DNA of 63,951 nucleotides, counting the filler, from Reclinomonas americana ATCC 50394 (taxonomy: Eukaryota), in assembly GCA_048213135.1 (NCBI GenBank). It is 12 parts of 10 records of this genome, joined end to end, with 100 filler letters (N's around TTAATTAATTAA, not from the genome) between each part and the next. Parts side by side here need not be neighbours in the genome. Positions count along the whole stretch, not along the records: positions 16,314 to 39,389 come from AFZH01016648.1; 11 more parts are not named here. The stretch is one strand, 5' to 3'. The position numbers and the translations under genes were made by a program. The notes under the pieces are model-generated. The model did not search any database. It saw only the letters and a program-made list of their open reading frames with translations, and was not told where the DNA came from. The first letter of the stretch is position 1. Every line of letters starts with the position of its first letter. Shown here piece by piece: positions 5,181-57,085 of the stretch.

Positions 5181-8100
5181 ATGAAGAGCGATCGTCGTCG
5201 TCTTCTTCTACTCCTCCTGCTCCTCGTGTTGGCTTGTGGGCGATGCGACGCGCAGAGTTCCACGTCAACATTGCAGCCGCTCGGTGACATTCTTTCGCGA
5301 TGGACGAGCGCTGGCGACTCGGTGGTGTCGGCCTCTGGAGTGGCCCTGCACTCGTTCCTCGCAACAGGTGCCACACCAAGTGGAGGCCCGAGTCTGGCAG
5401 ATGCCACGACGCCCTCCATGTTGCGTGGCTTTTCGCGCGCACACACACGCACGCACGCAACGAGCGATAGAGAGAGAGAGAGAGAGAGGCGCATCAGCAG
5501 CGACATGTGCAGATAGATGCGACTTGTAGGTCGTCAATGTCACCACACCTTCACTGATGCAGTCGCAGTCAGCAATCATCAACCGATGCTCGATTTCGTC
5601 ATTTATTCATTGTGTGATCGATTGGTGACAGGTTTGGTGCGAGTGGCGGTAACGTGATCAACGTTGGATCGGTGTCGAGTCTGTCGTATTCGACGAGTCG
5701 TGTGTCGGCCAACACAGCGTGGGGCAGCGATGGGCAGTGGTTCACGGCGCAGTCGGTGAGACATGCTACTGGCGTGTTGTTCGCGTTGGCGTGATCTCAT
5801 GATCATTGTGCCCCGCGATGCAGAGTCAAGTGTGGATGTTTGCGGCCAACTCGATGAGTGTCGCGGGCTTCCAGATCCGTGGCACGTCGGGTGGAAACAC
5901 GTCACGGCAAGCGTCGGCAACGACGCTGCAGATCACCAGCAACGGGCACACGTATTCTGTGCTCTGTCGCCAGGTGTGGACGAGAATGCGGTGTGCTCTC
6001 TTCTTTCTATCGTAGCGTGTCTGACACGAGCGACACACAGACGTTCAGCGGAACCGCGCCATCGATTGTGCGCATGACACTGGTGCCGGATACGCCGTCG
6101 GTGTCGCAGACATCGTTCGAATCATCGCCCTCTGTCGACAATGTCGACATCAACAATCTGTCTGCCGCCGTTCGGGTCTACCACTTGCTGTTCTCGCAGT
6201 TCGGCGGCACCGACTCGACGGCCTTGACTAATGCACAACTGCGCAGGTTGAGTTGACACCATGAACCTTTCCTTTTCCGAACTCACTCACATGTTCTCGC
6301 TTCAGTGTGGCCAACTCGTTCATCTCCAACATTTTGCACACGGTTCCCAGCGATGTGGCAAACTTGTCGCTCGCCAGTGTGCAGTCCGCCATTCCCACTG
6401 CCGTGCCCGCGATCGCCGGTGCCACGGCATCGTTCCTGTCAACTGGCTTGACAACGTCCGGCAACACGGCCTTGTCGTACACGGGCAGCAATGGTACGTC
6501 ACATGCGTCGACTGGCAGGCAGGGACGATTCTTGCAGCTCACATGTGTGCATGCGCAGCTGCCGTTGGCAACACGGTGACCACCAGTGTCAATCTCCAAG
6601 TGCAAAACACCGACGACGTACTTATCACACCGTCGAGCACGACGTCGCCCTTCCTCACAGGCTCCTACGTGTCGTACACTACCGGTGGCCTGTACGTGCT
6701 GGCTGCCGATATCTCCGCCATCTCCAACTTGGCCATCTCCGGCAGCACCGGCATGACGTCGTCGGCCTCTGTGAATTTCCTCACGCTTACGGCTACTGAC
6801 ACCACTGGCATCATTCACACGGCGTTTGTGCGTTTTGTGTGCTCGACTACCCCCGTCTGCATTGTCCACATGGGCATCATCATGGCCGGCCAGTCGTGCG
6901 GCGCCACGGGCACTGCCAGCTCGGCAGCCTCGGTCGATTCGCTGTTCCTCTCCAATCTGCTGCCGTGCCAGCGCGCGTACCTCCTCACCTACACTACCAC
7001 GGCGGCAGTGACCGAGACGACGGCTCGCGCGACGATGCGAGCGGCTCTGCAGTCGCTGGCGGGCGTCTCCATTTCTGGCGGTGATTGCGTGCACCTCGTC
7101 ACCTGCGCACGCAGTCGTTGTCAGTTTGACTGACTGTGCGAGTAACAGGCAATACGCCCAGCGATAATTCACTGTCGTCCTACTCGTCGCGGCTCACCAA
7201 CAACTCATCCTCACTGAGCAACGCGATTCCGAGTCGGTTCAACTTTGTCGACGGCTTCACAGGCACGGAGATCAACGACGGCGGCGAAGACATGTTTGAC
7301 GGGTGAGATTGCATGCAACACTCGCTTCCCCTTCTCTCGCGTACTCACACACACACACACACACACACTCGGTGTGTGCGAGCAGTGGAAACCAGCTCAA
7401 CACCAACGTCCAGTCTCTAANNNNNNNNNNNNNNNNNNNNNNNNNNNNNNNNNNNNNNNNNNNNNNNNNNNNNNNNNNNNNNNNNNNNNNNNNNNNNNNN
7501 NNNNNNNNNNNNNNNNNNNNNNNNNNNNNNNNNNNNNNNNNNNNNNNNNNNNNNNNNNNNNNNNNNNNNNNNNNNNNNNNNNNNNNNNNNNNNNNNNNNN
7601 NNNNNNNNNNNNNNNNNNNNNNNNNNNNNNNNNNNNNNNNNNNNNNNNNNNNNNNNNNNNNNNNNNNNNNNNNNNNNNNNNNNNNNNNNNNNNNNNNNNN
7701 NNNNNNNNNNNNNNNNNNNNNNNNNNNNNNNNNNNNNNNNNNNNNNNNNNNNNNNNNNNNNNNNNNNNNNNNNNNNNNNNNNNNNNNNNNNNNNNNNNNN
7801 NNNNNNNNNNNNNNNNNNNNNNNNNNNNNNNNNNNNNNNNNNNNNNNNNNNNNNNNNNNNNNNNNNNNNNNNNNNNNNNNNNNNNNNNNNNNNNNNNNNN
7901 NNNNNNNNNNNNNNNNNNNNNNNNNNNNNNNNNNNNNNNNNNNNNNNNNNNNNNNNNNNNNNNNNNNNNNNNNNNNNNNNNNNNNNNNNNNNNNNNNNNN
8001 NNNNNNNNNNNNNNNNNNNNNNNNNNNNNNNNNNNNNNNNNNNNNNNNNNNNNNNNNNNNNNNNNNNNNNNNNNNNNNNNNNNNNNNNNNNNNNNNNNNN

Positions 8101-8369
8101 NNNNNNNNNNNNNNNNNNNNNNNNNNNNNNNNNNNNNNNNNNNNNNNNNNNNNNNNNNNNNNNNNNNNNNNNNNNNNNNNNNNNNNNNNNNNNNNNNNNN
8201 NNNNNNNNNNNNNNNNNNNNNNNNNNNNNNNNNNNNNNNNNNNNNNNNNNNNNNNNNNNNNNNNNNNNNNNNNNNNNNNNNNNNNNNNNNNNNNNNNNNN
8301 NNNNNNNNNNNNNNNNNNNNNNNNNNNNNNNNNAGACGTGGCGAGTGTTTGTTGTCGTGCACTTCGTCT

Positions 8370-12040: not shown

Positions 12041-12140
12041 NNNNNNNNNNNNNNNNNNNNNNNNNNNNNNNNNNNNNNNNNNNNTTAATTAATTAANNNN
12101 NNNNNNNNNNNNNNNNNNNNNNNNNNNNNNNNNNNNNNNN
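12041..12140. other. Artificial scaffold spacer N44-TTAATTAATTAA-N44; also at 13183, 16214, 39390, 41119, 47919, 52164, 53743, 56923, 59146, 62003
   Basis: Identical 100-bp element with stops in all six frames, always embedded in Ns; genes such as ALDH, the FN3 protein and TFIIH p62 continue across it. Confidence 0.97.
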
Positions 12141-12496
12141 CCAGTACTGTCTGAAGGGTCAGTGCATCGACAACACCGTCGTCGAGCACTTCCTGGCCAC
12201 CATCGGCAGCTTCAGCCCGATTGGCATCTCTGGCCCTGGCACTCTGTCGGCTGGCACCGCGTCGGCCTCTGGCACCTGCAGCCCGGCGTGCGACTCGAAC
12301 CAGTACTGCCTTAAGGGACAATGCATCGATAACACCGTCGTCGAGCACTTCCTGGCCACCATCGGCAACTTCAGCCCGATTGGCATCTCTGGCCCCGGCA
12401 CTCTGTCGGCTGGTACTGCGTCGGCCTCTGGCACCTGCAGCCCGGCGTGCGACTCGAACCAGTATTGCCTGAAGGGTCAATGCATCGACAACACCA
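12141..12496 (+). repeat. Coding tandem repeat, 159-bp period, about 2.2 copies visible (likely more in the gap)
   Basis: Units start at 12141, 12300 and 12459; differences are mostly synonymous. Confidence 0.92.
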
Positions 12497-12990
12497 TGAC
12501 CAGCACGTTTGCCACGGCCTTTGTGCAGGCGGCGGATCAGAGTTGCGAAACGAAGATTGGCTGCATTATTCGTGTCTGCATTCTTGTTGGACCTCACTTT
12601 TCATGCTGCCTGCAACAGATCAATGCCGCGGCTGCTATTCCAAGTGCGCGGCCGACGGATATGCTACGATGCAGCAAACGTGCGGCGGCCAGGTCTGTCT
12701 GGAGGCTGCTCGCCAGGTTGGCAATTGCATGTTTGGCTGCCGCGACAGCCCTGCATGCGGTGGTGCCAATGGTTCCGGCCAGTGCCGCGAATGCCAGCAA
12801 CAGTGCGCGATTCCGGTACGTGTGTTCAGCTTCGTGCCCTTAACCTGCTTGCTGCCTGGCCTCACTGTTTCGATTCCAAAAACAGACTGTGTGGTGCTCC
12901 ACCGTCAAGTGCACCGGCCAGATGTGCGACACGTGCCTGTTCCTGACCAGCAAGTGCTTCCAGCGCTGTGGAGATGCATGCGTGGCCTAA
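12141..12990 (+). CDS. Cys-rich, probably secreted protein with 53-aa tandem repeats (5' partial)
   Basis: Repeat QYCLKGQCIDNTVVEHFLATIG(S/N)FSPIGISGPGTLSAGTASASGTCSPACDSN, then exons QCRGCYSKC..CRECQQQCAIP and TVWCSTVKCTGQMCDTCLFLTSKCFQRCGDACVA*. Confidence 0.75.
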
Positions 12991-13306
12991 ATAATCGTGT
13001 TATCAAAGGGCCACGGCGAGGCACACTGCCAGTGAGCGCCTGTGCACGGTACTGATACATAAAAGCGTGCGACTCGCATTCATGCATGCAAGTGCAAATT
13101 TGAGGTGTTGTGAAGCTCCTTTGCAGCACGGCTGGCTAGTGGTACACATGCGCGTGACAAGCAACACCAGCTGGGCAACGCGNNNNNNNNNNNNNNNNNN
13201 NNNNNNNNNNNNNNNNNNNNNNNNNNTTAATTAATTAANNNNNNNNNNNNNNNNNNNNNNNNNNNNNNNNNNNNNNNNNNNNAGATGTTGTGCTGTTATC
13301 CGCAGC

Positions 13307-14425: not shown

Positions 14426-15108
14426 TCATGAGGGCGCTGGCGCGTCGCTGTCGAGTCGCTTGCCGTTCAGCATGACAACAATCTCATCGTCCACACGCTG
14501 CTCCACTTCCTCCCGATGGCCCAGCGACAGTGTCCTCCGTTTTCTCCGCGTCGCCGGCGACACTCCCGGCACCAGCTGCTTCGCCACATTGTTCAACTGC
14601 ACTACCGTGTGACACACACAAAACATACGTGGCAGACGTACACTGTATACACACACCTCAAACGCCGTCATCCGCCCACTCTCCGGCTCCATGGTGACCA
14701 ACACCAGCGGCAGAGTCGATCGCTGCGCGTGCGATCTCGCATCGGCAGTGTACCCGGCCGCACTGACAAACACTCCCAACACCGCCTGCTGCTGCGTGGC
14801 CAGCACGCCCTCCATCTCGCGCAAGTGTTTGGCACCCAACTGTGCGCCTGTGTGACGACACTGCACGAGCACTGGCACGTGATCGTTTGCACACAGATGC
14901 CAGTGGCCGCGCAGATCCACACCACCGTCGTATGCACCTCCGCAACGTTCGACTTGGAAGCGAAGGCGATGAAGGACCTGTGCGTGTGCGTGAGAAAGAA
15001 ATGTAGAGTGAGGATGATTGCATTCCGACTTCATGCCTTTTCTGTGGTTTCCTCGAAGCGGGTGCCGCGGTGCACAAAGGAGAACAGGCGTCGATAGAGC
15101 AGTTGCAT
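14426..15108 (-). CDS. RRG7: RRG7/DUF2034-like mitochondrial PD-(D/E)xK restriction-endonuclease-fold protein
   Basis: MQLLYRRLFS presequence-like start; RGTRFEE; GGAYDGGVDLRGHW; VLVQCR; LREMEGV; GVFVSAAGYT. Confidence 0.8.
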
Positions 15109-15194
15109 CCTCCTTGTCTCTCTCAACACACGTCGGAAAAATGATCGACCGCCAATGGACGAACACCTGAGAAACTCGCTGTGTTCATTTAGAG

Positions 15195-18100
15195 TCACCC
15201 ATCGAGGGAGGATGCCAGGTTGGCATTCCACAGCGGACGCGATCGAATCGACGGTTCTCTGGATCTGCGTGTCTCGTCGCCATCGTCGTCAGTTTCCTTC
15301 TCTCGCGGAGAAGCGGCAGCTCGTGCTGTTTGTTTTTCGGTCAACAGGTTAGTTGCCTCTGCATCCACCATCCACATGCACAGGTAAGCAGAAAGTACAG
15401 TACCTGCGGACGCGGGCGGGGCCGGGGGCGCGGACGGCTCAGCATCTGCAATTCACAGTTGGGGGGTGTCTTCATCGCACGTGCACGTGCACAACCGAAC
15501 CTTGATCAAAATCCGCTTGCCACGGAGCCGGAGGTGCAGATGGAGGGGGCTGCCCCACCTCTCGCGAGCGAGATTCGTGCGCTTGATACTCAATTGAAGG
15601 TCGAAGATCGCCTGTGACTGTGTGCGTGTAAGAGTGCAAACGCTATTGCCAGACAAGCGGTGTGTCCACCCACTCACCATCGGCATCCTCCTCATCGCCG
15701 TGAATAAGCAGCATACGATTCTCCTCCACCGCTTCGGCATTGATGTTACCGACAATCACGTTCTGAGGCCGACGCAGAGCCACGTGACGGCGCCATCGCA
15801 CCAGCAGCCACACGACTAGCGCCACCAATGCGACGCCTGCAGCACACGAAACCCCAATCACAATCCACTTCCACACCGGAGGCGACGGTATTGGTGGATC
15901 AGGTCCAGGTCCTCCACCGGTCGTCAACACACGCAAGTTGGCCGACGGGATCGACTGGCCGTACGAGTTGACAGCGCGCACGTTCACCACATACGGCGTG
16001 CCAGGCTGCAGGTTCGCCTGAGTGAACGTGTAGTTGGCACGCGATGACGACGACGACGTCGACTCGGTGGCGTTCTTGTAGCTGACAATCACGTTGCCAC
16101 CGCTCTCTGGAAATACCTGGATCTGGTAGCTGGTGATCAGACCGAGACCAGTGTACACCGGGGTCGAGAAGTTGATGGTGATTGTCGTGTCAGACACAGC
16201 ACCCTGAGTTGGCNNNNNNNNNNNNNNNNNNNNNNNNNNNNNNNNNNNNNNNNNNNNTTAATTAATTAANNNNNNNNNNNNNNNNNNNNNNNNNNNNNNN
16301 NNNNNNNNNNNNNCCCAGTTGGTGGCGTTGAGCCAGAAGCGGTAGAAGTTGCCGTTCACCACCGTCACAGATGCCCTGGTGTCGATGGGACCCAACGCCA
16401 CCGTCGGGTTCGACGCAGTCGTGCCCGACGTGCCAGTCAGAGCCTGGTTAGAGATGGCAGTCGACGCGCCAGTGGCAGTCGTCCACGTGAACGCAATCGC
16501 CGTGCCAGTGTTGCTGGTCACCGCAAAGTTGGTCTGGTCGTTCGGCACCTGGCCCGTCAGCACGTTGTTGTTGAGGCCGTTACCGATGATACCATCACCG
16601 AAGGTGGCCTGAGTAGTCGACGTGCCAATGCCGTTGATGCCGCGCACATCGATAAAGTAGTTGGTGGCGTCAGTGAGGCCGCGGATCACAGCCTGCTGCA
16701 CCGAGGTGGTGTTCTGGGTCAGCGTGCTGGCCATAGCCGCGCGCCACGACACCTGCCACTGGTTCACGAACCCCTGGCCGCCAGTCTCCTGCGGCTGTCC
16801 CCAGCTGAGCCAGATCGAGGTCGAGCGCTTGAGCAGAAGGTTCGACGACAGCGACGTGATGCCGCTCGGGCGCACAGGCGACGTGGCCGTGGTGATGGTG
16901 ATGGCCGACGCAGACCAGGCAGTCTGGTAGCCGTTGAACGACGACACGCCAATGCGGTACTTGGTGTTGGAGGTCAGGCCATTCACCAGCAGCGACGAGG
17001 TGGTCGAGCCGAGCGAGCCAGTGAGCTGGGTCACAAACGAGTCCGGCACAAAAGTGGTCGAGGTGACGTTGGTCAGGTTCTGCACCAGCACCTGCACGCC
17101 GACAAAGTTCGCGAAGCCGTCCGAGGTGGCCAGCAAGTACTGCGTGCCGATCGCCGTCGACGGGGTCGACAGCGTGAAGGTGGCGTAGCCGGAGCCAGTC
17201 GTGCCAGCCGAGCCGCCAGTGGTTAGAGCCGGCAGCGGGTACGGGCGCACAATCGAGTTGGCAATCTGCGACAGAGTGCCCGACTGAGCACCGCTCTGCG
17301 TCGAGGTCACACCAGTGTCCGAGCGGGTGTTGGTGGCCTGCACGGCGTAGGTGTACGACTTGCCCGGAATGGTCGGGAAGTTGAAGTTGGTGGTCGTGGT
17401 CGTCCACGTGTAGGTGCGGTTGCAGTTGCTGGTGTTCTGCGTCACAATGTAGCCATTGATCGAAGAGCCACCAATGCCAATCGGCGACGTCCACGAGATG
17501 CTGGTGATGGTGTCCTGGTAGCAGTTGCCAGAGAAGCCCACACCGAGGGTACCAGCCACGAAAGCGCATCCGGCGCTCGAGTTGGTGCCCTGCGAGTTCG
17601 CAATACCAGCAGCCAGCGTCGGGGCGGCCGGGGCGATCGGTGCGTCATCTGTGTGGTGGAAAAGGGAACAGGTGGATGAGATACTGATATTCAAAACAAG
17701 CAGATGGTTCCCTGTCTATCTCCCCCTATCCCCTCTCCTGTCCTCTTTCTTTCCCCTTTCCTTTCCCCCTTTCACGCAACTAGTGTTGTGAGTGGTCTGC
17801 GTGATCGGGCCAGCAGCCGTGGCCGAGTTGGTCGACGTGGCAGTGGCGTACACCTGGTACGTGTACGACGTGTTGGCCGTCAGCGTCGTGTCGGCAGTGT
17901 AAGCGGCGGTGGTCGCCCAGCCAGCCGGCAGGGTCACCGTGCCCACAGACACCGGGGTCGCGCTGCCCTGGCCGCGGAAGATCGTGAACACCGTCACCGC
18001 GTTGGTGCCAAAGTTCTGCGGAATCGTCCACTGCAGGGAGATGTTGGTGAGGCCGTACTGCGTCACGACCAGGCTGGTCGGCGGGTTCGGCACGACACCG

Positions 18101-21100
18101 GTGGCAGCCGGAGTGGTGAAGTTGATGGCAGTGCTGAACACGCACGTCACCGGGTTGGCGGTGGTGCCAGCCGGGTTGAAGGGCGACGTCGGGAAGGCAA
18201 TCGAGAACTGGTTGCTGGCGCAGATCTGCAGGTTGACCGAGGTGCCAGCCGGCAGGCTAGTCACGTCAATGTAGTAGGTCGACAGGTTGGCGTTCCACGA
18301 TCCAGTGCCAGTGCCGTTGGTGGTCGGGATGGAGCTGGTGTCAATGTTGACGGCAAGGCCTGCAGTGGCCGCAGTCACCGACGAGGCGCTGGTGGTCGAG
18401 TACACCACACGGTAGGCGCTCACGTTCGGAGTCGGCGTCGTCACGTTGCCTTGCGTGGCGCTCGAGGTGGCAGTGTTGGAGCCGCCGACGCTGATCGGGG
18501 TCGAGAAGTTGAGGCGCACGCCAGTCGAGAACAGGCGCGAGTACGCCACACCAGTGGGCGCAGCCGGCACGGAGCCGTTGTTGTCGGTGGTGGCCTGGAG
18601 GGAGCCGGCCGCCGAGGCAGTGGTGTTGTTGTTCACAGTGACGCGGATCTTGGTCGTGTACTGCGTGGCAGCCACAAAGTTGTTGGTGGTGCCGCTCACA
18701 GTGAAGCCGGTGATCTGCTGGTAGAAGCCAGAGTTGTACGAGAACAGGCCGAAGAACGAGGTGGCGAGAGTGCCAGTGCCAGTCGCGCCAGTGGTGATGG
18801 CAGGCTGGTCAGTGCTGGCGTTGGTCACCGTGTAGGCGACGCCCGGCGGAAGGGCAGTGTCACCCGTGCCAAAGGTGGCCGGGTAGTTGAAGGCGACGAC
18901 AAACGACGTCGAGGTGACCTGGTCCACAGAGCCAGTGTACGGGGCGACCGTGTAGCCAGTCGGCGTGGCCGGCGCACCGGACGCCAGAGTCACAGTCACG
19001 GCGGTCGAGAAGGTCAGGTTGGCACCGTTGTCACCCGGAGTGCCGCTGCCGTTGTTGTAGGCAGTCGAGATGGCGCAGCTGGTGCCAGTCAGGCCAGTGA
19101 CCTTGACGAGCACACGGTTGCGCGACAGACCAGAGCTGCCGGCCGGGATGCCGAAGTCGGTCAGATCGGCAATAGTGGCTACCACCGTCACCGCACCGGT
19201 GCCGCAGTCCGACTTGACGTACCACGAGGCAGCGCCAATCACACCCACGTTGGCCGCCACACCCTCCCACTCCACCCACGTCGAGGTCGATGTGACGTAG
19301 CGCAGGTTGGACGACAGCGTCGGCGCCGCAGTCGACACCTTGGTGGCATCCGAGCCGCTGGTGGTCAGAGTGCCGCTCCAGGCCGCAGCCGAGCGGTTCA
19401 CCTGCGACTCAGTCCACACGTTGATGGTGTAGCCCTGGCCAGTGGAGGCGTTGGCGGCGGCAAGAGTGGCCAGAGTCACACCGCGCCACGCGTTGGACGA
19501 GACGTTGGTCTTGGTGACAGTGGTGGGGCCAGCGTCGCCGACCAAGAACGCGCGGTAGGCAGTGGTGCCGGTGGCGAGGTTGGTGGTCTGCAGTACGGTG
19601 ATGGTGGTGTCAATGTCCTGGAAGGTGCTGGCAGTGGCACCGACGGCAGAGTTGGAGGAGAGACCGCCCTGGCCGACTAGGTCAGTCGGCAGCTGCAGCC
19701 AGATGGTGGCCTGGGTGCTGCCAATGTAGTAGATGGCGTTGGAGCTGGCGGTGGTGACCTGAGCACGGTCTATTTTGAGGGAAGGAAGTAGGAAGTGTGA
19801 GCTCACCAATGGTGAGAAAAATGAATGAGAGAAAAGAGAAAGTGGGCGGTGCGCAACTGGTGGCAGTCCAGAAGTTGGTGCCAGTCGGTGAGGCGGGGTA
19901 AGACGAGTTCGTGCTGGCCGCATTCCTGACGGAGAATCTAACTTGTGGGAAGTACTGACGGCCGGGAAGGAGGCCGGAGAGGGTGACCTGCCAGCCGTCG
20001 AGGTGGCCAGTGGCCGGCTGGTCGTTGTTGGCCGTGGTGGTTAGGCCCGACAAGACAAAGACACCACGCACGAAGGCAGAGCCAGTGGCAGTAAACGCGT
20101 AGACGCTGGCGGCAGACGAGGCGTTGACGTTGGCCTGGTTAGCAACGTACTGCGCCTGGGCGGCGGTCAAGGTGATGACGAACGTCAGCGAGGTGTCGGT
20201 GATGTCGATGACGGTGATAGAGTTGGCAGTAGCGAGTTCGCCAGCGTTGCTGCCAGCACCGGAGGGAGTAACTGCCGTGGTGACGGCGGTGACGGTGGCA
20301 GAGTACGCGGTGCCACCGGCAATGAGATCAGGAGGCAGGGAGAGGTGAAGAACATCGCCAATATGATAGTCCTGCCCGGGTGCACCGTTGAGCGCTGACG
20401 CTGCACCACTGTGGTCAACAGTAATCAGCAGCGTTGCACCCGCACCACTACCACTGGTCGTCGTGGGCACATTGTTGTACAAGCTTGATGTACCGTACCC
20501 AGTACCACCGGTGGAGTTACTCAGCGTTGCAATTGCACCACCGGTAACCGAAGCAACCTTCACCGTAATCTGATCGCCAACGGCCGGAGTCGGCAAGTAG
20601 GCGCTCCCACTTTTACAGCCTCCCCCGCCGCCCAGAATTCTGAATGTGTCATTCATCGCGTAGCCAGAGCCACCGCTGTTGATGGTGACGGCGGTGATGG
20701 TGCCGGTCGGAGAAACAACGACATCGACCGTCGCATTAACACCAGTGCCAGTAACGGCAGTGGTGGCACAACCGACGTATTTCTTGCTGAAGCTGTCGCT
20801 TCCGGCAGTTACAATCAATGATGCAACACCGTCTAAAGTGGCATTCGATTGCGTGGCACTTGCGGAACAACAGTAGAGGCGCGCAGAGGCCCCACCACTC
20901 ACCAATGTCCAACTCACACCAAATGTAGTGGTCGTTGTCGGCGTGGTTCCACGGATCGCCACCAAGAATTTGGAAGCACTCAGTGCAGTCGTCGCCGTGT
21001 TTCCATCAAGATAAGCAAAATCCACGGCCACCACTCCATTGTTGCCAGCAGTTGTACCGGCGACGAAGCCCATGGCGTTTACACCACCAATAGCAGTACC

Positions 21101-23092
21101 AGTGGTTGCAGTCGCCACCACACCACGCTGCTGCGGCGAGCCGGCGTACAGAACGACGAAATTGACACCAACAGTGACAAATGCATTGATGGAAGTTACT
21201 GCATTTCCAGCACGGTCATACCAGACAGCGCTTCGGGGCGCCGTCACACCGAGGGAGGATATTGCCGTCACAGAAGCTCTTCCAACGGCGGCACCAGAAA
21301 TGGACGTTGCCACAAGATTAACAGTTCCGACACCGCCATCGCCAGGGAGAGAATGCGAAAAGGTCATCGTACCAGTGAGGTCACTGGGGCCCATCGACAC
21401 GGTGCCCACAGCACCAGCGACGCCATTGGCAGAGAACGTGTACGGTGCCACACCAAAGCCACCACCACCAATGGTTGTGGCAGCAAACAGGCTACCCAGG
21501 CAGTTGGTGATCGTGCTGCCAGTCACCGACCAGCAGGCTACCAGGGTCTGAGCCGGCAACACCGGGCTGGCATCGGCGGCAGTCAGAGTGATTTCGAGAT
21601 GCGAGGCAACGTCGAGAGCAGCAGTGCCATCACCATTGGCGTTCTGCGCAGTCACGCGGATGCGGTACTTGGTGATGTTGGTCGAAGACAGCTTCGAGAT
21701 TAGAATGTGACCACCAGACAAACGTCCGAAGGCGCTGTCGTAAGCCGGCGTGCCAGTGAACGAGGTGGAAGAAAAGGCGTTGAACAGAACAGTGCCGCCG
21801 TTGGCGGAGGCCGCAGCCTCCACCTTGAAGCTGGCGATGGCACCGCCAGTCAGCTGCGGGCTCGTCCACGAGATCAGACCGCCGTCAGAAGCAGCCGCCA
21901 CCAGGGTCGGGATTGTGACCTTGTCCGGAGACTGCTTGCCGTCCTGGGTGGTCACCGTGGCGGTCTGCGAGGAAGGAGAAGGAGAAGAGGGAGGGTGAAC
22001 AGCGTGCAAAACCGAAAGACGAAAAGAGAGACGCAACAATGCTCCACGGGCCAAAACCCCACTGGCCCACAGCACGCACGCGCACACCGTAGCGAGTGCT
22101 TGGTCGCAGAATTCCATGGGAGGCGATTGCGCCAGTGCCCGACACCACGCACGACTGCTGCGAGAACGGGCCAGAGGTGAACGGGTTAATGGCCGCGTTG
22201 GCGTTGTTGCCGTTGATGGTCTCGGAGAAGAAGGTCACCGGAGTCCAGGCGATCAGCGAGTTGTTGGAATGACTGTAGATCTGCACCTGGAAGAAAGGGC
22301 TTTGCAGCTGGTTGAAGTTCGGGTTTCCAGAGCCAGTGGCGCCAGTCTGGCCGAGCTTGATTGGCGGGTAGAACGACAGCACGAACGAGGTGGCCGACCT
22401 GTAATTGATGGACAGGTTGGTCGGCTGGCGCGGGGTGCCGCTGAGTGGCACAGTCACGACCTGCGATGAGGTGCGGACGCCCTCACCGTACGCGTTGACC
22501 GCGTAGGCCTGTGGGTGGGGGAAAGTGACGCGACGAGGGGGGAAGAGGAGGGAAGGAGGGAGGGAACGCAACAGCGATGGTGTACTGCACACCCTCCTGG
22601 ATGTTCTGGTCAAAGTAGCGCAGAATCATGCCGTAGCAGCCGTAACCACTATACCATGGACCTCCGTTGGCCGTAATGGCGTTGACCGACATGCACTGTT
22701 GAGGGAGGAGAGGGGAGGAGAGACGGTGGTGATCAGAGGAGAGAGGAGAGAGAGGAACACGGAGGAGAAGAAAACGCAACAGTGTACTTGGTGGTACCAC
22801 CAGTGCTGGCCACGTCGACACCAAACTCCAAGGGCAACGCGTTGCCCTGGTTGACGGGGTTGGTCCAGTTGACCCAGATGGCCGACTGAGAGCCAGTAGG
22901 GAAGGAGGTGTCGAGGTCTGTGGGAGAGAGAGAAGGGAGGGAGGGAGAGAGAGAGGGAGAAAGTGAGAGAGGGAGGAGGTGTGCACACAACAAAGCAAAT
23001 GCGACAGCGACAAAGATGAAGAGATACAGCGAGATAGAGAAGACTGGAGAGAGTTGGAAGCAAGAAGACAGCTGAGAAGAAAGAATACACAG

Positions 23093-23143
<51 letters not shown>

Positions 23144-23368
23144 CACCATCCTCGCCCACGGCCTTGATGATCTGGAACTGCTCTGGTGCCGCTGAGCTTC
23201 CAGGAGCATAGAGCTCGCTGGCGAGGGCGAGTGGAACTGAGGCAAGAGCTGCGTGCGTGAGAGAGTGGCATGTTATTCAATGTGAATGATGGATGACTCA
23301 CGCAGCAGGAGCACTAGTGCCACAATGACCGCAAGTGACACGAGGTTCTGAGTGGGTAGCGACGGCAT
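15195..23368 (-). CDS. Giant (>2000 aa) type-I surface protein with multiple fibronectin type III repeats, one TM helix and a short cytoplasmic tail
   Basis: Signal peptide MPSLPTQNLVSLAVIVALVLLL-PLAS; FN3 signatures (ISLQWTIP..YTYQVYA; LQPGTPYVVNVRAVNSYG; GLTDATNYFIDVRGINGIG; LRPSTRYGVRVRAVGQWG); TM WIVIGVSCAAGVALVALVVWLLV; three small tail exons ending NLASSLDG*. Confidence 0.88.
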
Positions 23369-23639: not shown

Positions 23640-26600
23640 TCACTGAATAGCCAGCACAGCAGTCGCCAGCAGCTCGTCCACATTGGCACCGGCGCCACGC
23701 AGGAATCGCTGCCCCTTGTTGAAACTGCAACCAAACGCACACAAGTGAGATGTACAGCAGCAGGTGGTGGTGAAACACACAAGTGCACAAGAGTGACGAA
23801 CATCAGCTGCCACTCGCCACGACGCGCAGCGCCCACGGTCTTCAAGCCATCAATGAAATTAGTCCATCGAAGCTTGCACCTTCCACACAATCAACACTGA
23901 TGCACAAACCTGCAGCACGGCCATTGCAATAGCAGTCCACCACACCTTGTCGTCGTCCACAGACTCCGGACGCAGTGCATTCAGCTGCTCCACAGTCTTC
24001 GTCGTGTAGCCCGCAATCAGTCCGCTCTCCGACGGCGTCCAGAACCCAGCAAACTGCACAGGCAGAAGTAAGGAACACACCACGACAGCAGCTGGTGAGT
24101 GGGGAGATAGAGAGAGAATGTTGGTTGCGCAACGTTTTGCTTCAGCATCAGTGAATCCTGTGTGGAATCGAGTGAGCAACAAAGACTGATGACAACAGCA
24201 CCTGCTGCGGACGCAACGAGGTTCAAGACTGGAGCTGCCACAACGGAGCTCTTGCCGACTGGCTTTTCTTGCTGCCTGCATAGTTGTAATTTCAAAGTCA
24301 GTATGCCACACACGCATCAATGAGTAGAGCGCTCGACGCACTTTTCCTCTGCCTCGTACGACGCCAGAGAGGCGGCCAGTACAGCAGCCAGATCAGGGTC
24401 GTCTTCTTCGTCTCCAGCAGCCATTACCGCACCTTCAGCTGCCAGGCTCCTCTCCACGGCCAGACCACCGATGTCCAACGCGCGCAGGTCTACAGCAGCC
24501 GCTGGAGCTGGACTGTACGCGAACAGGCTGTCCAGCGCACTGCTTTCACGAGCGACGTGGCCCACGTCGGCGGCTTGCATGTATCCAGCTGCACCTGCAG
24601 GAGGTGGTGGTGGTAGTGGCATTCCTCCATACGCGTGCATCGGGAATGCCGCCTGCGGGGCTGGTGCTCCATACATCTGAGGCGGAGCATATGCTGCGGG
24701 TGCTGCCACTGGTCCGCCTCGCAAAACAGGCATCGGTCGATGCTGTTGCTGCTGCTGTGGCTGTTGAGGACGGCCGAAAACCGCACCAGAGGCTACTGCC
24801 AGGTCACTGAACGGGTCTGCTGCTGGCGACGCATCTGGGCATTGAAATAACAAGCAAATTGCACATGCATTCAGCAAAAATACACCAGATCGACGAGATT
24901 CAGCCGCTGCTCATACCTTCTTCTGCTTCGCCGAAATCGTCCGCATACGCGAGGTGGTTTGCGTGACTGCAGCACGGCGACTAGTGAATCACATGCAACA
25001 TCCAGTGACATCACATCAACAAGCTGTTACTCACTGCGGCATGTGACCGCCAAATGCCCTCGGCATCGCACCATGGCCACCAAGTTCCCTCGCCATTTCG
25101 GCAGGCGCGAAAAACGCGGCCATCGCTGGCCGCATCTGTGGACCACCACCACCACCGCCGAAGGCCGCAAAATTTGGCGCTAGCACACTCGACGTGGCAG
25201 TGGCTGCAATAGGTGCACTGCAATAACAGTCCTCAGTGGTGAGGATAGATCTGACATGGAAGCCAGAGTGACAAGCAATACTCAACGATTTGTAGCCGCT
25301 CTCGAGAGCAATGTTGATCTCACGCAACACCGGAGCCACTGCACACGCACCATCACAACCGTCAGACAACTCGCTGAACACTTTGAATTGCGCTTGCATG
25401 CGCATACACCCACCATCACTGGCGGCCGACGGAGCGTCGTCCACCACAATGAAATTCGTGTGCTTCGACGCCAGCTTGAAGCGCGTCGCCAACTCCACAA
25501 TGTCGCCAGTCGATCTGCGTGCACACACAGACAGACAAATAGACACGCCACTCAGAACAACAACAACGAAGGCGCATGTGCACAGTCCCCCGTTCTTCAC
25601 ATGCACGCACCCGTTGTGAGTCTCCAAGTGCGCGATCTTACTCTTGGCTGCGCACACAACACCACGTCAGCATTCAAGTCGCTGGCGATTCAACACACCA
25701 CAGTTCATGATCGGTACAGTACCAGCAAGAGTGTGCACTTGCGTGCCGCGCACAGCCGCACCAGCACGAACAGTTGCCGTCTCCTCCACTTCCTCTGCCA
25801 AAGATGCACAAACCAGTGAGTGTCGACTTGTGACACAGAGGAGATTTCGCACTCACCGGCACCCTGCTGCCACGTCAGCTTGACCTCGAACGAGCCGACA
25901 TCACGCGGTGCAAACATGTACACGCAGTGCAACTCGCCCTGGAACGTCGGCGGAATCACATCGTCGGCCACATGCACACGCGGGTTGTCGACCGTGATCT
26001 TGCAGTTGGTGAGTGCCGGCTGCATGGCGCCTGTGAGGACGCCAAACACAGACGGACGCATTCCACCCTCGTCAGCTTTCACTCACTTCGTGCGAGAAGC
26101 ACAATGCCACGCAACGAGTGAGTTGGGTGATGACCAGCGAGGCCATCTGCTGTTCCCCGATCTTGCTGAATGCAGCACTGCCGTTTCCCTTGCGCGCCAG
26201 TTCCAACACCAGCTCGGCATCCACCTGCAGCCCAGATGCACAGTGAGCATCTCTCACTCTTGCAGACAACCATCAGGAGACTCACATCGTTGCCGATGCC
26301 AATGGACCACACTCGAGTCGTTCCTGCATGCTGCACCACTAGGGCACTCATTGTTGTCAGCCAACGACGAACAGATGAAGATGACTGCCTGCTGTCACAC
26401 TGACCTTCGTTGACACAATCCTGGGTATTCTCCACCTCACCATCGGTCAGCACAAACAACTGGCGGCTGTAGCCGGCCACCACTGGCTGACGGAAGATTG
26501 CACCCAGCGGTGCCAGCAGATTCGTGCCACCGAGATCACCGTCAGCGCGTTCGACATACGCACGCGCCTCGGTCAGCGTGTCCTCGTCGACCTTGCGCGA

Positions 26601-28160
26601 CTGCGGCCACAGGCTGTGGAATACACCACCAAATCTGCGACCAAAGAAGAGCAGACGCTGCGTTTTGAGTTGCACGCAACAAGAAATCACCACATTTTTT
26701 CATGCAGACCGATAGATGTTGAACATGACGCCAGGTGCGAGACTCTGCAAGAACAGTTGCATGGCGCGCTTGGCTTCGCGGATTGGTCCACCACTCATTG
26801 ACCCACCTGCATCACAAACATACATGATCACAATATGAGCGACGACGATTGGACATGCCACTCCTTCACAACACGCCCACGTAACTGCAGTCCAACAGAA
26901 ACACAATCTCCGTGTTGATCTCCACATCCAGGTTGGCATCCAACGCCGGGGCAATCGTCACACATACCGCCAGTTCCTTGTCGGTGCCCACCAACGCCGG
27001 ATCCACCTCCACAGAGACAGCAGGCACTGATGCATTGTTCAATGTTGGCCAACAAGGGAGGAGAGAAAGACAGCAGCGCACCTGGCAGCTCCTCCAGTGT
27101 GAATGATACACACAAGTCGCTGGCAAACGACTGTCGCACGTCCTCCAGACGCAATGTGGCCTCGTTGTCGCGCACATCGGTGCTGTGCATTGCGTGATTC
27201 TCCGATGTCACATTGGTGATGACCGACGGCATTGTGGCCTTCACATCCACCGACGCGCAGAACCGACGCAGCACACCAAAGGCGGTCTCTATCTCCACTG
27301 CCTCCGGTGCAGACGAGCCGGCCTCACTGTCGACACCGAGTGAGAGATGCCTCACAGAGGAAAAGAGAGAGAGGGAGGGAGAATGAAACGCAACTCGCGC
27401 TCACGCAGCGGTGGCAGCAGCGACTTGGAGACGACAAAGACGAGGTTCTTGGCCAGTGCGTCGGCCTTCAACTCCGTCACGTATGTGATGCACACGGTGG
27501 CCTCGTGTGTCGGATCCAGCCGACCAATGTTGACCTGTGTGTGAACGACGAAATGCACGATGGTCGGCGATCGAGTCAGCAGACAACTTCGTCTCCTGGT
27601 GGTGGCGACGCAACAGTGTAGGTGAATTCGTCACGCTTCTCGACCATGAAGGGTCGATGTCCGGCCGCAATGGCATCGTCGTAGCGCTCCTGCGCCCGCT
27701 GCTTGGCCTCCACAGCGCCCTGCAGCGATCAGAATCACCGATTAGCTAAAAATATCACGGCGTGTGTGATCAACTGGCGACACGTAGCGCACTCAACTCG
27801 CAACACCCGCCCATCAACCTGCACCGCAAAGTCGCACACGGCAGTCTTGCGGTCACACGGGAACATGTATGTGATCTCCAGCGGCGTGTCAGTGCGATTG
27901 GCGTACACCTGGATGCATGTCACTCGCGCCGTCGCGCCCACAATCTCCGCTTGCACATGCACGCCTGTGCCACAGCGAGAACGAGAAGAGAGAGAGGTGG
28001 AGGAAGAGACACACGAGTGAGACAAGTGCTTTGAGTGTGAAAGGCGGAAAAATGACAGCCGCGTCGCACCTTCCACAGGTAGCACGCTCTTCCCCGCTGG
28101 CACTGTGGGGTCCTCGTAAAAGAGGCCCGCAATGGGCTGCACAAGTGTTGGTTCCTCCAT
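23640..28160 (-). CDS. VIT + von Willebrand A domain protein (VWA5A-like) with Pro/Ala-rich linker and a UIM
   Basis: VIT: VHVQAEIVG..YANRTDTPLEITYMFP..AQERYDDAIAAG; MIDAS EIVFLLDC-SGSMSG; LGGTNLLAPL; LFVLTDGEV; RVWSIGIG; LASKHTNFIVVD; C-terminal VWWTAIAMAVL..EWQLM-FNKGQRFL. Confidence 0.92.
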
Positions 28161-28258
28161 GTGTTGTCTTCTCTCTCTCAATGATGTTTGTTGTGATCAT
28201 CCACCCCTCCGCTCCACTCAACCAAGCCATACCATACCATCGCACGATGCGTCGCAGC

Positions 28259-37121: not shown

Positions 37122-40100
37122 TTACGGATCGAGCGCAATGTAAACGGTCTTGGTCTGCATGAGGAGTGAGAAGGCAGCGAGTGGATTTCGCCGAATCGTG
37201 AGGCTCGTGGCCAAACCTCGAGATACTGCGTGCAAATTGCAGGTGAGCACACAGAATCTGTGTAGAGTGCAGACGCACACAACACAGCAAACCTCGCGAA
37301 GACCCTCCTCGCCGTACACGCGCCCAGTGCCCGACCTGCAAGACACTCAGCCCCCACATCAACTGATTGACAACCACCACAATGACGCGCAACTGCTTGA
37401 ATCCTCCAAAGGGTGCGCCAGGCTCCACCACTGTGCACAAACAGTGAGTCACAGAAGGGCGCAGAAACACACGCAGTCATTAGCCACGAATTGGACGCAC
37501 GGCCGTAGCTGTGGTGGCATGCAAAAGAGAGGATGCTGCATGAGAAAAACGAGAGAAGTAACTGTCAATGTGCAAGGATGACCTCACCAGTTGACCCACT
37601 GCACACGGGAGGCAGCGACACAGTAGTGCATGATTAGATCAGCGAAGTGTGCGAGACTAGCATAGAGAATCGAGTGTCAACGAACCACGGTGCCAGCGCG
37701 CCTGCACATGGGATGCGACAGCATCAGATATGAGATATTAACCACACAAGGGGAACAGTGGGTGAACACGCAACACGGAGCGCATGATCGCCATGGCCTT
37801 GGAGACGTCCTTGACCAACACGGCAGCCGCCAGACCGTACGAGGTGTTGTTCGCCTGGCGTCGTGTGAGGGAAGAGAAAAAACGAGGGACGCGCAAGCAG
37901 CAATAACTCAACTTGCGTGATAGCCTCGTCCAGCGAGCTGAACGGCGACACCACCAGGACGGGCCCAAAGATCTCTGCGGCACTCCCCGAGGTGAGGAGC
38001 CAAGAGAACAACTACGCGCGTCGCACGGCTGGTGACTCACCCTCCTTGACGATGCGCATGTCGGGAGTGCAATCGGCTGCTCCAAAAAGGGATTCAGTCG
38101 CACACGAAAGAAGTGCGCAATACATCAACAACACGCCACCCACCAAAGATTGTCTGCGAAGGACCACAAGGTGTGAGCCATGCAGTCCGAGTGCGAGTAA
38201 GATTCACAGACAGCAAAGACGTACCGGCTCGACAAAGTAGCCACGACTGGAGGCGCGCTTGCCTCCGCACATCACGCGGGCACCCTCGCGCTTGCCAATG
38301 TCAATGTACGACAGCACGCGACGCATTTGGTCTGCCAGAAGAAAATGAGTCATCGCCGCAGCAAGCAAGCTGATTCACGATTGCTTAAACAGTCACAAAC
38401 CCTCGTTAACAAGCGGGCCCTGCTCCGTGTTCTTGTCGAGCGGGTTACCGACGACACGCTTCTTGGCGCGAGCAGCCGCCTTTTCCAGGAACTGCAACAG
38501 ACGGCAAGTGGGCCCCGAGTACTCTCAGCATCTCGACGATCAGAAATACCGCAGCACCTTCTCGTACACGCTGTCTTGCACGTACACGCGCGAACCGGCA
38601 CAGCTACATAAGTGGAGGAGGTGGTGGAGAAGTGAATGATGTGGAAAGACAGAGCGCTGCGTACATGGCCAGACTGATACTCACCAGACTTGACCACTGC
38701 ACCGAAGCGACACGAGGGTGAGGACGCGAGGTGAGTGCAGTCGCAAGCAACACAACATCAACGCACGTGTTGTAAAAGATGGCATTGTAGCTCTGTTCGA
38801 CAGCCCAGTCGAGATCGACATCGTCAAAGATGATGAGCGGCGACTGGGATGGAGAAGTTTCAAAAAAAAAAGTAAGTGAAATGTAGGGAGATCACAGAGA
38901 CGATATCGCCAACATGCCGACCTTGCCACCGAGCTATACGGGAACATCGTGAGCACGCAGGATTACAATGGGACGTGTGCGCCAATTCAAACGTCACCTC
39001 GGTGGTCACGCGCTTCAGGTTGGACTCGGCGGCAGCTGTCGAAAATAGTCAGCGACAGATTCGGCGGAAATGAGCTCGAGTCACTCACCCTTGTGAACCA
39101 GACGGCCCACTGTCGTGTATGCAGATTGAGATGAATGGTCAAAACGGGAAGACAGCATTTCGCACACGACAAACCTTCCGTCGACTGCGGAAGACACAGG
39201 CGAGAAGACAAACAACGAATGAGTCGCGAGGAGAGGAGAAGGGGGAAGAGAGGGGGAAGGAGAAGGGGGAAGGCGAAAGGGGAAGACGAAAGGGGAAGAC
39301 GAAAGAGGAAGACGATGGGGGAAGAGATGGGGGAAGAGATGGGGGAAGCGAAGGGGGAAGTAAGGGGGAAGTGAAGGGGGGAAGTGAAGNNNNNNNNNNN
39401 NNNNNNNNNNNNNNNNNNNNNNNNNNNNNNNNNTTAATTAATTAANNNNNNNNNNNNNNNNNNNNNNNNNNNNNNNNNNNNNNNNNNNNAGAAGGGGGAA
39501 GTTAGGGGGAGCGAGAATGATAGAAAGAGAAAGGCGATGAGCTCAGAGACAAAAGAGAAAGATTATCGAGATGAGTGAGGAAGAAAGGAGAGCGAGTGAG
39601 ACAACAGCTGCACAAGCATGGAGGGCTACGCAACTCCAGTGAATGAGACCTTGTCGACGTCCATGTGGCGCTGTATTGGGGTGAGATATCAGAGACTGTC
39701 GATGGTTGATTGAAGAAGAGAAACGCACAGTCAGCGCTTCGCCAGTCTCTGCCGCACCCGGCACAATGTTAACGACACCTGCGGCGACGTGAGCGACAGC
39801 AACTTCAGGGGGCGGTACAAGTGCACAAACCAGGCGGGATGCCGGCCTCCAGCACCAACGTGCCAATGTAGAGAGCCGACAGTGGGGTCTGCTCGGCGGG
39901 CTTGAGCACGACGGTGCAGCTGAAAAGAAGTCACAGTGAGCGCCACCACGTTGAAGTATCAGCCCGACAAGTGACGCCCGACATACCCAGCAGCCAGGGG
40001 AGGCGCGATGCGAGATATGGCCATGAGGAAGGGGAACTGTGTGGCGACAAAGTGATTGAGCAGCTGAATCGACTGCACGAATCATGCACACGCGTGCAAG

Positions 40101-42068
40101 CGCAACGTTGAATGGCCTGCGGGAAGTTGTGTACGTGGTGAGAAGAAAATGAGCGCACGAGCAGAGCAAGGTCACAGTGACTCACACAATGAGGCCGCAG
40201 ACTGTCGATCAGAGAGACGAACAAGGGGTGAGTGCAGGACAGGGACTTATTCTGCATGCAAACGAGCCGCGTACCGCCAATCCTGCAACAAAAAAGAGTG
40301 AGTCCACGATACCTGATCAAACCACTCTTGCACATGTGCGTACGCAACGGCTCCAACACGGTCATGGTGTGGAACTTTGGGTGCACCGGCAGCACGTTGC
40401 CCGACGGCACCTTGTCGGCGTAGCCGGCGTAGTGGCGCACGTAGTGCACGGCGGTCTTGATTTCGCCCGTGGCGTCGCTAATCGGCTGTCACCAGCAACA
40501 GAACAGGCAAAAAGGGTCAGCTGCGTCGCAAAATCAAAGACGACGCGGGGTGGAGGCACGGCGCCCACCTTGCCCGAGTCCATCGACTCGATGACGGCGA
40601 TCTCGTCAATGTGAGCCTCGATTACGTCGGCCTGGGGGGAGCGCAGATTAGGGGAGAGGAAGAGTAAAGGGCGAAGGGAGAGGAGAAGAGCAACACAGCG
40701 CACACAAACCAGTCGATTCAGCACACGCTCACGCACGGCACCGTGAGTGTTGCGCCACTTTTCAAACGCCGCACGAGCCGCAGCAACGGCCTTGTTCACC
40801 TGCACCTCGGAATACCAAAAAATGAGACACAAGAAGGGGGTGGCGGCGGCGGGGGAAACGAGTGCGCAGGCGCAACGTCCTCCTTGGAGGCCTCCGACAC
40901 GTGCGCAATGGTCTGCCCAGTGGCGGGGTTCTCCACAGCGAACGAGCCGCCGTTCACCGGCGACACCCATTCGCTGAAGGAGAAAAGGAAAGGGTAAGAA
41001 GAGGAAGAAGAGAGAGGAGAAGGAGGAGAAGAAGAGGAAAAAGTGGGAAAATAAGAAAGAGGAGTAGGAGGAGGAGGAGGAGGAGGAGGAAGAAGAATGA
41101 GAAGAAGCAGAAGAAGGGNNNNNNNNNNNNNNNNNNNNNNNNNNNNNNNNNNNNNNNNNNNNTTAATTAATTAANNNNNNNNNNNNNNNNNNNNNNNNNN
41201 NNNNNNNNNNNNNNNNNNGGAGGAGGAGGAGAACAACAACAAGAAGAAGAAGAAGAAGAAGAACAAGAAGAAGAAGAAAAGAAAGAAGAAGAAGATGGAG
41301 AAGACGAAGAAGAAGAAGAAGAAGAGGGAGTGGAAGAAGAAGAGGAAGAAGAAGAACAAGAAGAACAAGAACAAGAAGAAGACGAAGAAGTAGATAAAGG
41401 AAGAAGAAGAAGAGGAAGAACAAGAAGAAGAAGAACAAGAAGGAAGAGGAGGGGGAGGGGGAGGAGGAGGAGGAGGAGAAGAAGAAGAAGAAGAAGACGA
41501 AGAAGAGCAAGAAGAAGAAGAAGAGGAAGAGGAAGAGAGATGACAGAGCGATTTTGCATGCAATGCCCGCAACTTGTTGATGAACAGCTTACTCATGATG
41601 GGAACACCAAAGCCGCTCAGCTGCCCATCCGAACCCGAAGAAGACGCTCCTGCAAAAAAAAAAAACGTGAGAGAGAGAGAGAGAGAAAGAAAGAAAGAGA
41701 AGAGAGAGAGTGAGTGAGAGAGAGAGAGAGGAGGGGAGTGAGCGTAAGTGAGTGAGTGTGTGAGTGAGTGTGTGAGTGGGAGAGTGGGAGAGTGAGTGAG
41801 TGTGTGAGTGAGTGAGTGAGTGAGAGAGTGGGGGAGTGAGTGTGTGTGAGAGAGAGCGAGTGAGTGAGTGTGTAGAGAGTGTGTGAGTGGGTGTGCAAGA
41901 GAGAGATTGAGATGCAAAGATGCAAAGACACACACACACACACACAGAGCATGCAAACATGCACTCACCTGCACACTCCTCCACTCCCGCACACTCCACA
42001 ACACTCTCCACAACACGCTCACTCAACTGCGACAAGAGCACATCAACACGACGACGTTGCTGCTCCAT
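37122..42068 (-). CDS. Aldehyde dehydrogenase (ALDH1/2-like) with N-terminal PTS2; more than 20 exons
   Basis: [112 protein letters not shown]. Confidence 0.96.
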
Positions 42069-47827: not shown

Positions 47828-48160
47828 CTCGTGGAAGAGTGCAGTGTAGGGAGAGAGAGAGACAGAGTGGCACAGTTACGGCGCGCAAGCAAAGGAGGTT
47901 GTCAGTGCGTGTGATCGGNNNNNNNNNNNNNNNNNNNNNNNNNNNNNNNNNNNNNNNNNNNNTTAATTAATTAANNNNNNNNNNNNNNNNNNNNNNNNNN
48001 NNNNNNNNNNNNNNNNNNTCACTCACTCACACTCACACTACTCTCTCACTCACTTCACTCATCCTGTCTCTCATCTATTCACCCTCTCTCTTCTCCTCCT
48101 TCGATCTCATCCTCATGTCCGACTTGCTCACCGTGCCTTTCCCTCTTCGCTCTCCCACAG

Positions 48161-52163: not shown

Positions 52164-52263
52164 NNNNNNNNNNNNNNNNNNNNNNNNNNNNNNNNNNNNN
52201 NNNNNNNTTAATTAATTAANNNNNNNNNNNNNNNNNNNNNNNNNNNNNNNNNNNNNNNNNNNN

Positions 52264-55222
<2,959 letters not shown>

Positions 55223-56922: not shown

Positions 56923-57085
56923 NNNNNNNNNNNNNNNNNNNNNNNNNNNNNNNNNNNNNNNNNNNNTTAATTAATTAANNNNNNNNNNNNNNNNNNNNNN
57001 NNNNNNNNNNNNNNNNNNNNNNCTCTTCGCGTGTGCTCAGTGGTGTTCTGACTTCCCTTTTATCACTCACCCTTCCCCCTTCGCA

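Follow-up and report, generated by a model that had tools for sequence, protein, structure and literature searches.

Whole-gene transfer from bacteria to protists is well known, and apicomplexan surface proteins carry bacterial-type adhesive domains. A short foreign piece lying in frame in the middle of a receptor gene, with its own codon usage kept, would be far less common and would illustrate evolution by domain insertion more cleanly. In the BspA-like family of Trichomonas vaginalis, a prokaryote-type surface repeat is found in protist surface proteins (PMC2843621). The present analysis concerns a candidate insertion in a 63,951-nucleotide stretch of DNA from Reclinomonas americana ATCC 50394, the whole of which is referred to as the window. 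Two tandem modules of a repeat with phage and bacterial relatives were located there at 20283-20833 (minus strand), within a gene composed of fibronectin type III (FN3) domains. It is considered moderately probable that ~1.2 kb from a surface-protein gene of a bacterium or phage was horizontally inserted in frame and now constitutes an exposed extracellular module. Homology, gene architecture and a compositional break are direct observations, from which we infer the transfer, its direction and the function.

Two tandem repeat modules

The region 20283-20833 (minus) was found to encode a stop-free peptide of 183 amino acids (aa), P0002, which was identical to the one quoted in the original prediction and lay within an 850-codon open frame, P0001 (22234..19685, minus). 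P0002 comprised two units of ~82 aa each, with a weak half-unit in between. The core signature of the repeat spans ~50 aa and reads Y-x-N-V ... G-S-G-x-G-A-T ... G-x-(I/V)-T ... G-G-x-G-Y-x-x-G-D, and it was recognised in P0002. For scoring, a hidden Markov model (HMM) of 50 positions was constructed from 151 repeat units of the database hits only, with the query excluded, and was run with all filters off against all six translated frames of the window, 127,898 residues in total. The core of module 1, a GGSGY-type unit at 20633..20779 (minus), scored 33.6 bits (E 8.5e-12), and the core of module 2 at 20327..20479 (minus) scored 52.5 bits (E 1e-17). In the case of the linker half-unit, which ends in GGTGY (20495..20581, minus), the E-value was only 0.21. 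The two cores flanked the half-unit at a spacing of 100 codons; the tandem period was ~82 aa, including the G-G-x-G-Y linker, and the same half-unit form recurred in the database hit proteins P0003 and P0007. Apart from the two cores and the half-unit, nothing in the translated window scored better than E 5.

Among 1000 shuffles of P0002, the maximum score with the repeat HMM was 4.7 bits, and ~2000 aa of FN3 exons that are similarly rich in Thr, Ser, Gly and Val gave zero matches. Composition-adjusted BLASTP of P0002 yielded E-values of 1e-10 (P0003) and 5e-12 (P0004), with alignments spanning the full period. By HMM, shuffles and BLASTP, the presence of two tandem modules amid the FN3 repeats was confirmed. 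On comparing unit 1 with unit 2, a score of only 10 bits was obtained, while the best foreign units scored 34 and 30 bits. Both units were closer to foreign units than to each other and are therefore not the product of a recent internal duplication. Judging from these scores, the modules look like a pair that had already diverged and arrived together.

Relatives and predicted structure of the repeat

An HMMER search of 1.84 billion representative proteins returned 33 matches at E<=1e-3, five of them at <=1e-10, and most were multi-stretch, with up to 17 matched stretches in one protein. At least one virion-category PHROG was detected in 31 of the 33 matches, and phrog_6005 in 29; since these assignments were made largely via the repeat itself, they show the repeat to be frequent among virion proteins but do not make each hit a phage protein. 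The remaining two were P0008, with PHROGs of unknown function only, and P0024, with no PHROG match. P0002 itself matched phrog_32294 'baseplate wedge subunit' (1.2e-7) and phrog_6005 'virion structural protein' (4.3e-7), and the repeat was found embedded in PHROG 6005, 32294, 2885, 438, 460, 4406, 5342 and 701.

Some hit proteins carried anchors outside the repeat. P0004 and P0017 were anchored by the baseplate wedge family phrog_2885 (E 6.5e-205 and 3.7e-217, respectively), P0028 by Pfam Baseplate_wedge, and P0007 by phrog_578 (head closure Hc3) together with Pfam Phage_stabilise. In a viral-contig locus (L002), the repeat was located within a 1559-aa phrog_2885 baseplate wedge protein (2.8e-270), beside a phrog_438 wedge gene. 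Other carriers were of bacterial type. P0003, the top match at 3.5e-19, bears the source name flagellar hook-basal body protein and contains Pfam Flg_bbr_C; P0008 carries the CHU_C signal of type IX secretion (T9SS); P0009 is a multicopper oxidase (Cu-oxidase_2 with FG-GAP) with an N-terminal repeat array. None of the 33 matches contained a eukaryotic-type anchor domain, and the cluster records of 30 of them listed only metagenomes or genomes as sources. The repeat was also an internal insert in otherwise unrelated database proteins, namely P0020 (an 840-aa phrog_32037 protein) and the hook protein P0003, and as judged from these sequences the module appears to be mobile between genes in prokaryotes and phages too.

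Several searches gave no assignment. No Pfam or NCBIfam model covered the repeat, either in P0002, where only a sub-threshold partial Gp18_dom_I was obtained, or, in the case of Pfam, in the prokaryotic hit proteins, and P0002 had no Pfam fn3 match at E<=1. No baseplate wedge core (phrog_2885 or Pfam PF23786 Baseplate_wedge) was detected in the 850-aa frame, in which PHROG matches were confined to residues 458-534. Homologous-protein searches with exon residues 91-795 (near and longer lengths) and with P0002 (longer lengths) returned nothing at E<=1e-3, although the window's own protein was also unlisted there. In Atlas, three unnamed clusters were nearest at 0.95, and the sole cluster with recorded taxa was viral. 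In the available parts of the literature on the motif, the GTTGCG donor and phage-to-protist transfer of structural genes, neither the repeat nor such a case was described.

The AlphaFold2 (AF2) model of P0002, based on a 12-row alignment, was all-beta, and the modules reached a predicted local distance difference test (pLDDT) of 70-86. The Foldseek search that the original prediction had proposed for this segment gave a divided result. The top fold matches in BFVD were structural, tail and 'Baseplate wedge initiator' proteins of Synechococcus, Prochlorococcus and uncultured marine phages, and single modules superposed over 70-75 columns with a root-mean-square deviation (rmsd) of 3-4 Å and 30-33% identity. 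However, the best BFVD E-value was 3.3e-3, and no counterpart was found in the PDB, for which the best Foldseek E was 0.78 and the wide VIA-align search reached Z 3.8, which is at noise level. Overall, the expectation that the repeat is typical of tail and baseplate proteins of T4-like marine phages and of some bacterial surface proteins was borne out by the PHROG matches, the HMMER anchors and BFVD. The matches obtained were of phage or bacterial type, none with a eukaryotic mark.

Codon usage

A compositionally distinct block of ~1.17 kb was delimited at 20315..21487 (minus), corresponding to P0001 residues ~250-640. The GC content at third codon positions (GC3) of the block was 0.52, compared with 0.76 in its flanks. 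When two breakpoints were fitted by likelihood within the large exon, the likelihood ratio was 43.9, which was equalled in none of 200 permutations. Among windows of 60 codons, 64 of 129 in the large exon had GC3 <0.6, against none of the 218 taken from three further FN3 exons; the GC3 of the other FN3 exons was 0.80-0.85. Seven stretches with Pfam matches, belonging to other genes of the window, had GC3 of 0.63-0.82 (pooled 0.70, n=446 codons), and all seven exceeded the block. Moreover, the block was much richer in GTT, ATT, AGT, GCA and AAT than the remaining gene. For the modules, GTT was used for 56% of Val (6% in the remaining gene), ATT for 78% of Ile (32%) and AAT for 43% of Asn (10%). 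The shift in GC3 was gradual over tens of codons, not abrupt, and the overall GC of the block, 0.57, was the same as that of the window.

The block started ~35 residues past the upstream FN3 domain and stopped at the end of module 2, and therefore most of the segment termed region A was included in it. Region A (20834..21589, minus) encodes 252 aa of no recognisable family. It had no match in Pfam or PHROG and no similarity to the hit proteins or to alignment A1, and its single-sequence AF2 model had a pLDDT of 32.5. In the case of Atlas, the first match of region A was at 0.76, below the useful level; this was a viral cluster with He_PIG on 37% of its members.

Architecture of the carrier gene

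The exon joins of the carrier gene were read by eye from frames, GT-AG junctions and translations. As reconstructed, the whole gene extends over 15643..23368 on the minus strand, as do all of its parts listed below, from an ATG at 23368 to a stop at 15645-15643. It has at least ~2180 codons in six large exons and three small upstream exons, and crosses one contig spacer. Exon 1 (23303..23368) encodes Met and a hydrophobic stretch, a likely signal peptide, and is followed by a GTGAGT donor. An upstream FN3 exon (22038..22511; Pfam fn3 25.3 bits, GC3 0.80) is separated by a phase 0 intron (21965..22037; donor GTTGCGT, acceptor AG) from the large exon of 702 codons (19858..21964). This stop-free frame contains, in order, an FN3 domain, region A, the two modules and an FN3-like domain. 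The FN3 domain directly upstream of the insert (21623..21892; P0001 residues 115-204) matched Pfam PF00041 with E 3.3e-6 and 27.6 bits at a cut-off of 25, and the FN3-like domain directly downstream of the modules (19859..20284; GC3 0.77) scored 15.3 bits, below the cut-off.

A phase 1 intron (19770..19857; donor GTTGCG, acceptor AG) then leads to an FN3-rich exon of 663 codons identified by Pfam (17781..19769; GC3 0.845), and a further intron (17649..17780; donor GTTGCGT) to an FN3 exon of 445 codons with three Pfam fn3 stretches (16314..17648; E 1.4e-14, GC3 0.85). The gene is interrupted there by the contig spacer at 16214..16313, consisting of 44 N, TTAATTAATTAA and 44 N. In the last exon, one further FN3-like domain precedes a predicted transmembrane helix, read from a 25-residue hydrophobic run (15799..15873), and beyond the helix lie a tail of ~50 aa and the stop. 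The join of this exon to the gene across the spacer is presumptive and was made from matching strand and domain type. Besides the domain that immediately precedes the insert, three further exons had significant Pfam fn3 matches, with scores including 25.3 bits and 54.5 bits (three stretches).

Five GT-AG introns, mostly pyrimidine-rich, restore the FN3 frame, and the three that were delimited measure 73-132 nt. These short, frame-keeping introns, together with split eukaryote-type genes on the same contig, upheld the view that the host gene is a eukaryotic FN3 gene. From its sequence, the gene is taken to encode a eukaryotic membrane protein of type I topology, at least 2180 residues long, with a predicted signal peptide and a predicted transmembrane helix. 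The carrier is read as a spliced eukaryotic FN3/transmembrane protein, unlike the virion or prokaryotic secreted carriers of the repeat.

All five gene-body introns that were checked begin with GTTGCG(T), at 17774-17780, 22031-22037, 22566-22572, 22774-22780 and 19852-19857. GTTGCGT occurred 40 times in the window against 15 expected, a count that was reached in 0 of 100 shuffles, and 36 of the sites were additional to these intron starts. This points to an unusual and strongly conserved 5' splice-site consensus in the host. A long (CT)n microsatellite was also observed at ~23085-23140, in the second intron of the receptor gene.

Origin of the block

Under the favoured reading, the segment would consist of two tandem beta-rich surface repeats of prokaryotic or phage type plus ~200-240 aa of unassignable sequence. 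This block would have come from a bacterium or bacteriophage by horizontal transfer, entering an FN3-repeat gene with the reading frame kept, and would have yet to adopt the codon usage of the host. In the mature protein, the block would be held off the membrane on an FN3 stalk, where it may act as a surface decoration or as a weak binding module for extracellular ligands. Such a role is proposed because elsewhere the repeat always sits on exposed extracellular structures, and by analogy with virion surfaces, the flagellar hook insert and secreted bacterial proteins it is the most likely one. Capture from outside, as proposed in the original prediction, was favoured by the codon-usage break. 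A phage rather than a bacterial donor was not supported: the top matches include a flagellar hook protein of bacterial type and a baseplate protein of phage type with the same E-value, so the donor may have been of either class.

Other explanations of the same observations were weighed. A resemblance due to chance or composition, in a beta segment rich in Gly, Thr, Ser and Val, might be suspected from the biased composition of P0002 and from a PDB sequence search that gave only spurious matches to linkers of antibody single-chain variable fragments (scFv). It is scarcely credible given the gap between the scores of both cores and those of the shuffles, the silence of the equally biased FN3 exons, and BLASTP alignments in which the signature was conserved position by position. 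An assembly artefact, in which a contaminant bacterial or phage fragment was joined into a eukaryotic contig, would fit a block with its own codon usage in a fragmented draft, whose 64 kb are broken up by 11 pairs of N-spacers and a run of 913 N. However, both ends of the block are in frame within 702 codons free of stops, the GC3 transition is gradual, the overall GC does not depart from that of the window, zero N occurs within 16314-39389, and no near-identical prokaryotic or viral sequence was present in the scanned collections. An artefact is accordingly regarded as very improbable. It is less improbable, while still unlikely, that the repeat is an old or patchy eukaryotic extracellular domain, never modelled and vertically inherited, whose likeness to phage and bacterial proteins reflects ancient ancestry or reverse transfer. 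Since Pfam lacks a model of the repeat for the prokaryotic hits as well, copies in eukaryotes would escape annotation; the identity is low for every match, and the searched libraries are mainly prokaryotic and metagenomic. Against vertical inheritance stand the lack of any match with a eukaryotic-type anchor, the occurrence of >150 units in phage and bacterial proteins of many architectures against two units here, and codon usage in the block unlike that of the remaining gene and of the other window genes.

Several observations weigh against horizontal insertion of a bacterial or phage piece, which is nevertheless preferred. No close donor was found, the identities to the best HMMER matches being 31-49% over short stretches. 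Searching the 183-aa peptide by tblastn against 50,697 phage records gave no match, and scans with P0002 gave 0 loci in prokaryotic genomes and just two distant loci, at 29%, in viral contigs. The AF2 model of P0002 was middling as a whole (mean pLDDT 60), and no BFVD match was at or below 1e-3. Part of the GC3 contrast could arise if GC3 has risen in the FN3 repeats, with biased gene conversion as one conceivable cause, and composition is the one line of evidence for a foreign origin of region A. Moreover, a wider eukaryotic spread of the repeat is possible, eukaryotic proteomes being partly represented in the searched libraries, and the linkage of block and gene is known from the draft assembly only. 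A more specific version of the insertion, in which a protist feeding on bacteria co-opted part of a virion protein from a phage (the modules plus region A) and displays it on an FN3 stalk, re-using phage recognition of bacterial surfaces for prey or soaking up phage or bacterial ligands, is judged improbable.

Neighbouring features of the window

The window is a chain of draft-assembly contigs, and linkage across the spacers is presumptive. Eleven 100-base spacers, each composed of 44 N, TTAATTAATTAA with stops in all frames, and 44 N, were located at 12041-12140, 13183-13282, 16214-16313, 39390-39489, 41119-41218, 47919-48018, 52164-52263, 53743-53842, 56923-57022, 59146-59245 and 62003-62102, and a 913-N run at 7421-8333. 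The contig 16314-39389 has no N and also contains split VIT/VWA_3 and Peptidase_M1 genes. The first of these, with VIT and VWA_3 domains, occupies ~24320-28200 (minus); its C-terminal part is Pro/Gln/Ala-rich and ends in an acidic, ubiquitin-interaction-motif-like segment. On the adjoining contig, just downstream of the receptor gene, an open frame at 14429-15184 (minus) matched the Mrr_cat restriction endonuclease family (E 1e-15) and RRG7 (1e-12). In the minus frame at 12088-12600, a nearly identical Arg/Ala-rich unit of ~53 aa was present in at least two copies and reached the contig end, suggesting a tandem DNA repeat where the contig breaks off. An Rfam scan of the window gave no match.

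Comparison with known systems

The baseplate wedge and virion proteins of the T4-like marine cyanophage type (PHROG 2885, 32294, 438, 6005, 4406 and 701) have the ~50-aa core and the ~82-aa tandem period in common with the window protein. The predicted all-beta module may likewise be common to both, single modules superposing over 70-75 columns at an rmsd of 3-4 Å and 30-33% identity. Unlike these proteins, the window protein has just two units, against up to 17 matched stretches in a single hit protein, no virion core domain and a spliced eukaryotic membrane carrier, and its sequence identity to them is ~30-40%. In the case of the bacterial proteins P0003, P0008 and P0009, the same repeat is placed on an extracellular structure, and P0003 also has the linker half-unit. 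These proteins use prokaryotic secretion or anchoring signals, whereas the window protein has a likely signal peptide, an FN3 stalk and a predicted transmembrane helix.

Although marine phage particles and bacterial surfaces carry the repeat in abundance, it is without a Pfam model, a solved structure or a known function. Displayed on a simple stalk, a eukaryotic copy would give an independent way to find what it binds, and if the carrier organism eats bacteria, the protein would be a candidate for the recognition of prey that can be put to the test. Ig-like and FN3-like decoration domains reportedly occur on phage virions (Fraser et al. 2006), and Hoc is said to mediate adherence to mucin (Barr et al. 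2013). As small surface beta modules that bind glycans weakly, these decoration domains provide a functional analogy only; no relation in fold or sequence to the present modules was shown, and the modules had no fn3 or Ig match in Pfam. The BspA-like family of T. vaginalis (PMC2843621) likewise presents a prokaryote-typical repeat on a eukaryotic membrane protein. It differs from the window protein in being a whole gene family, whereas here the repeat forms a short insert in an existing FN3 gene and is of a kind best known from phage particles.

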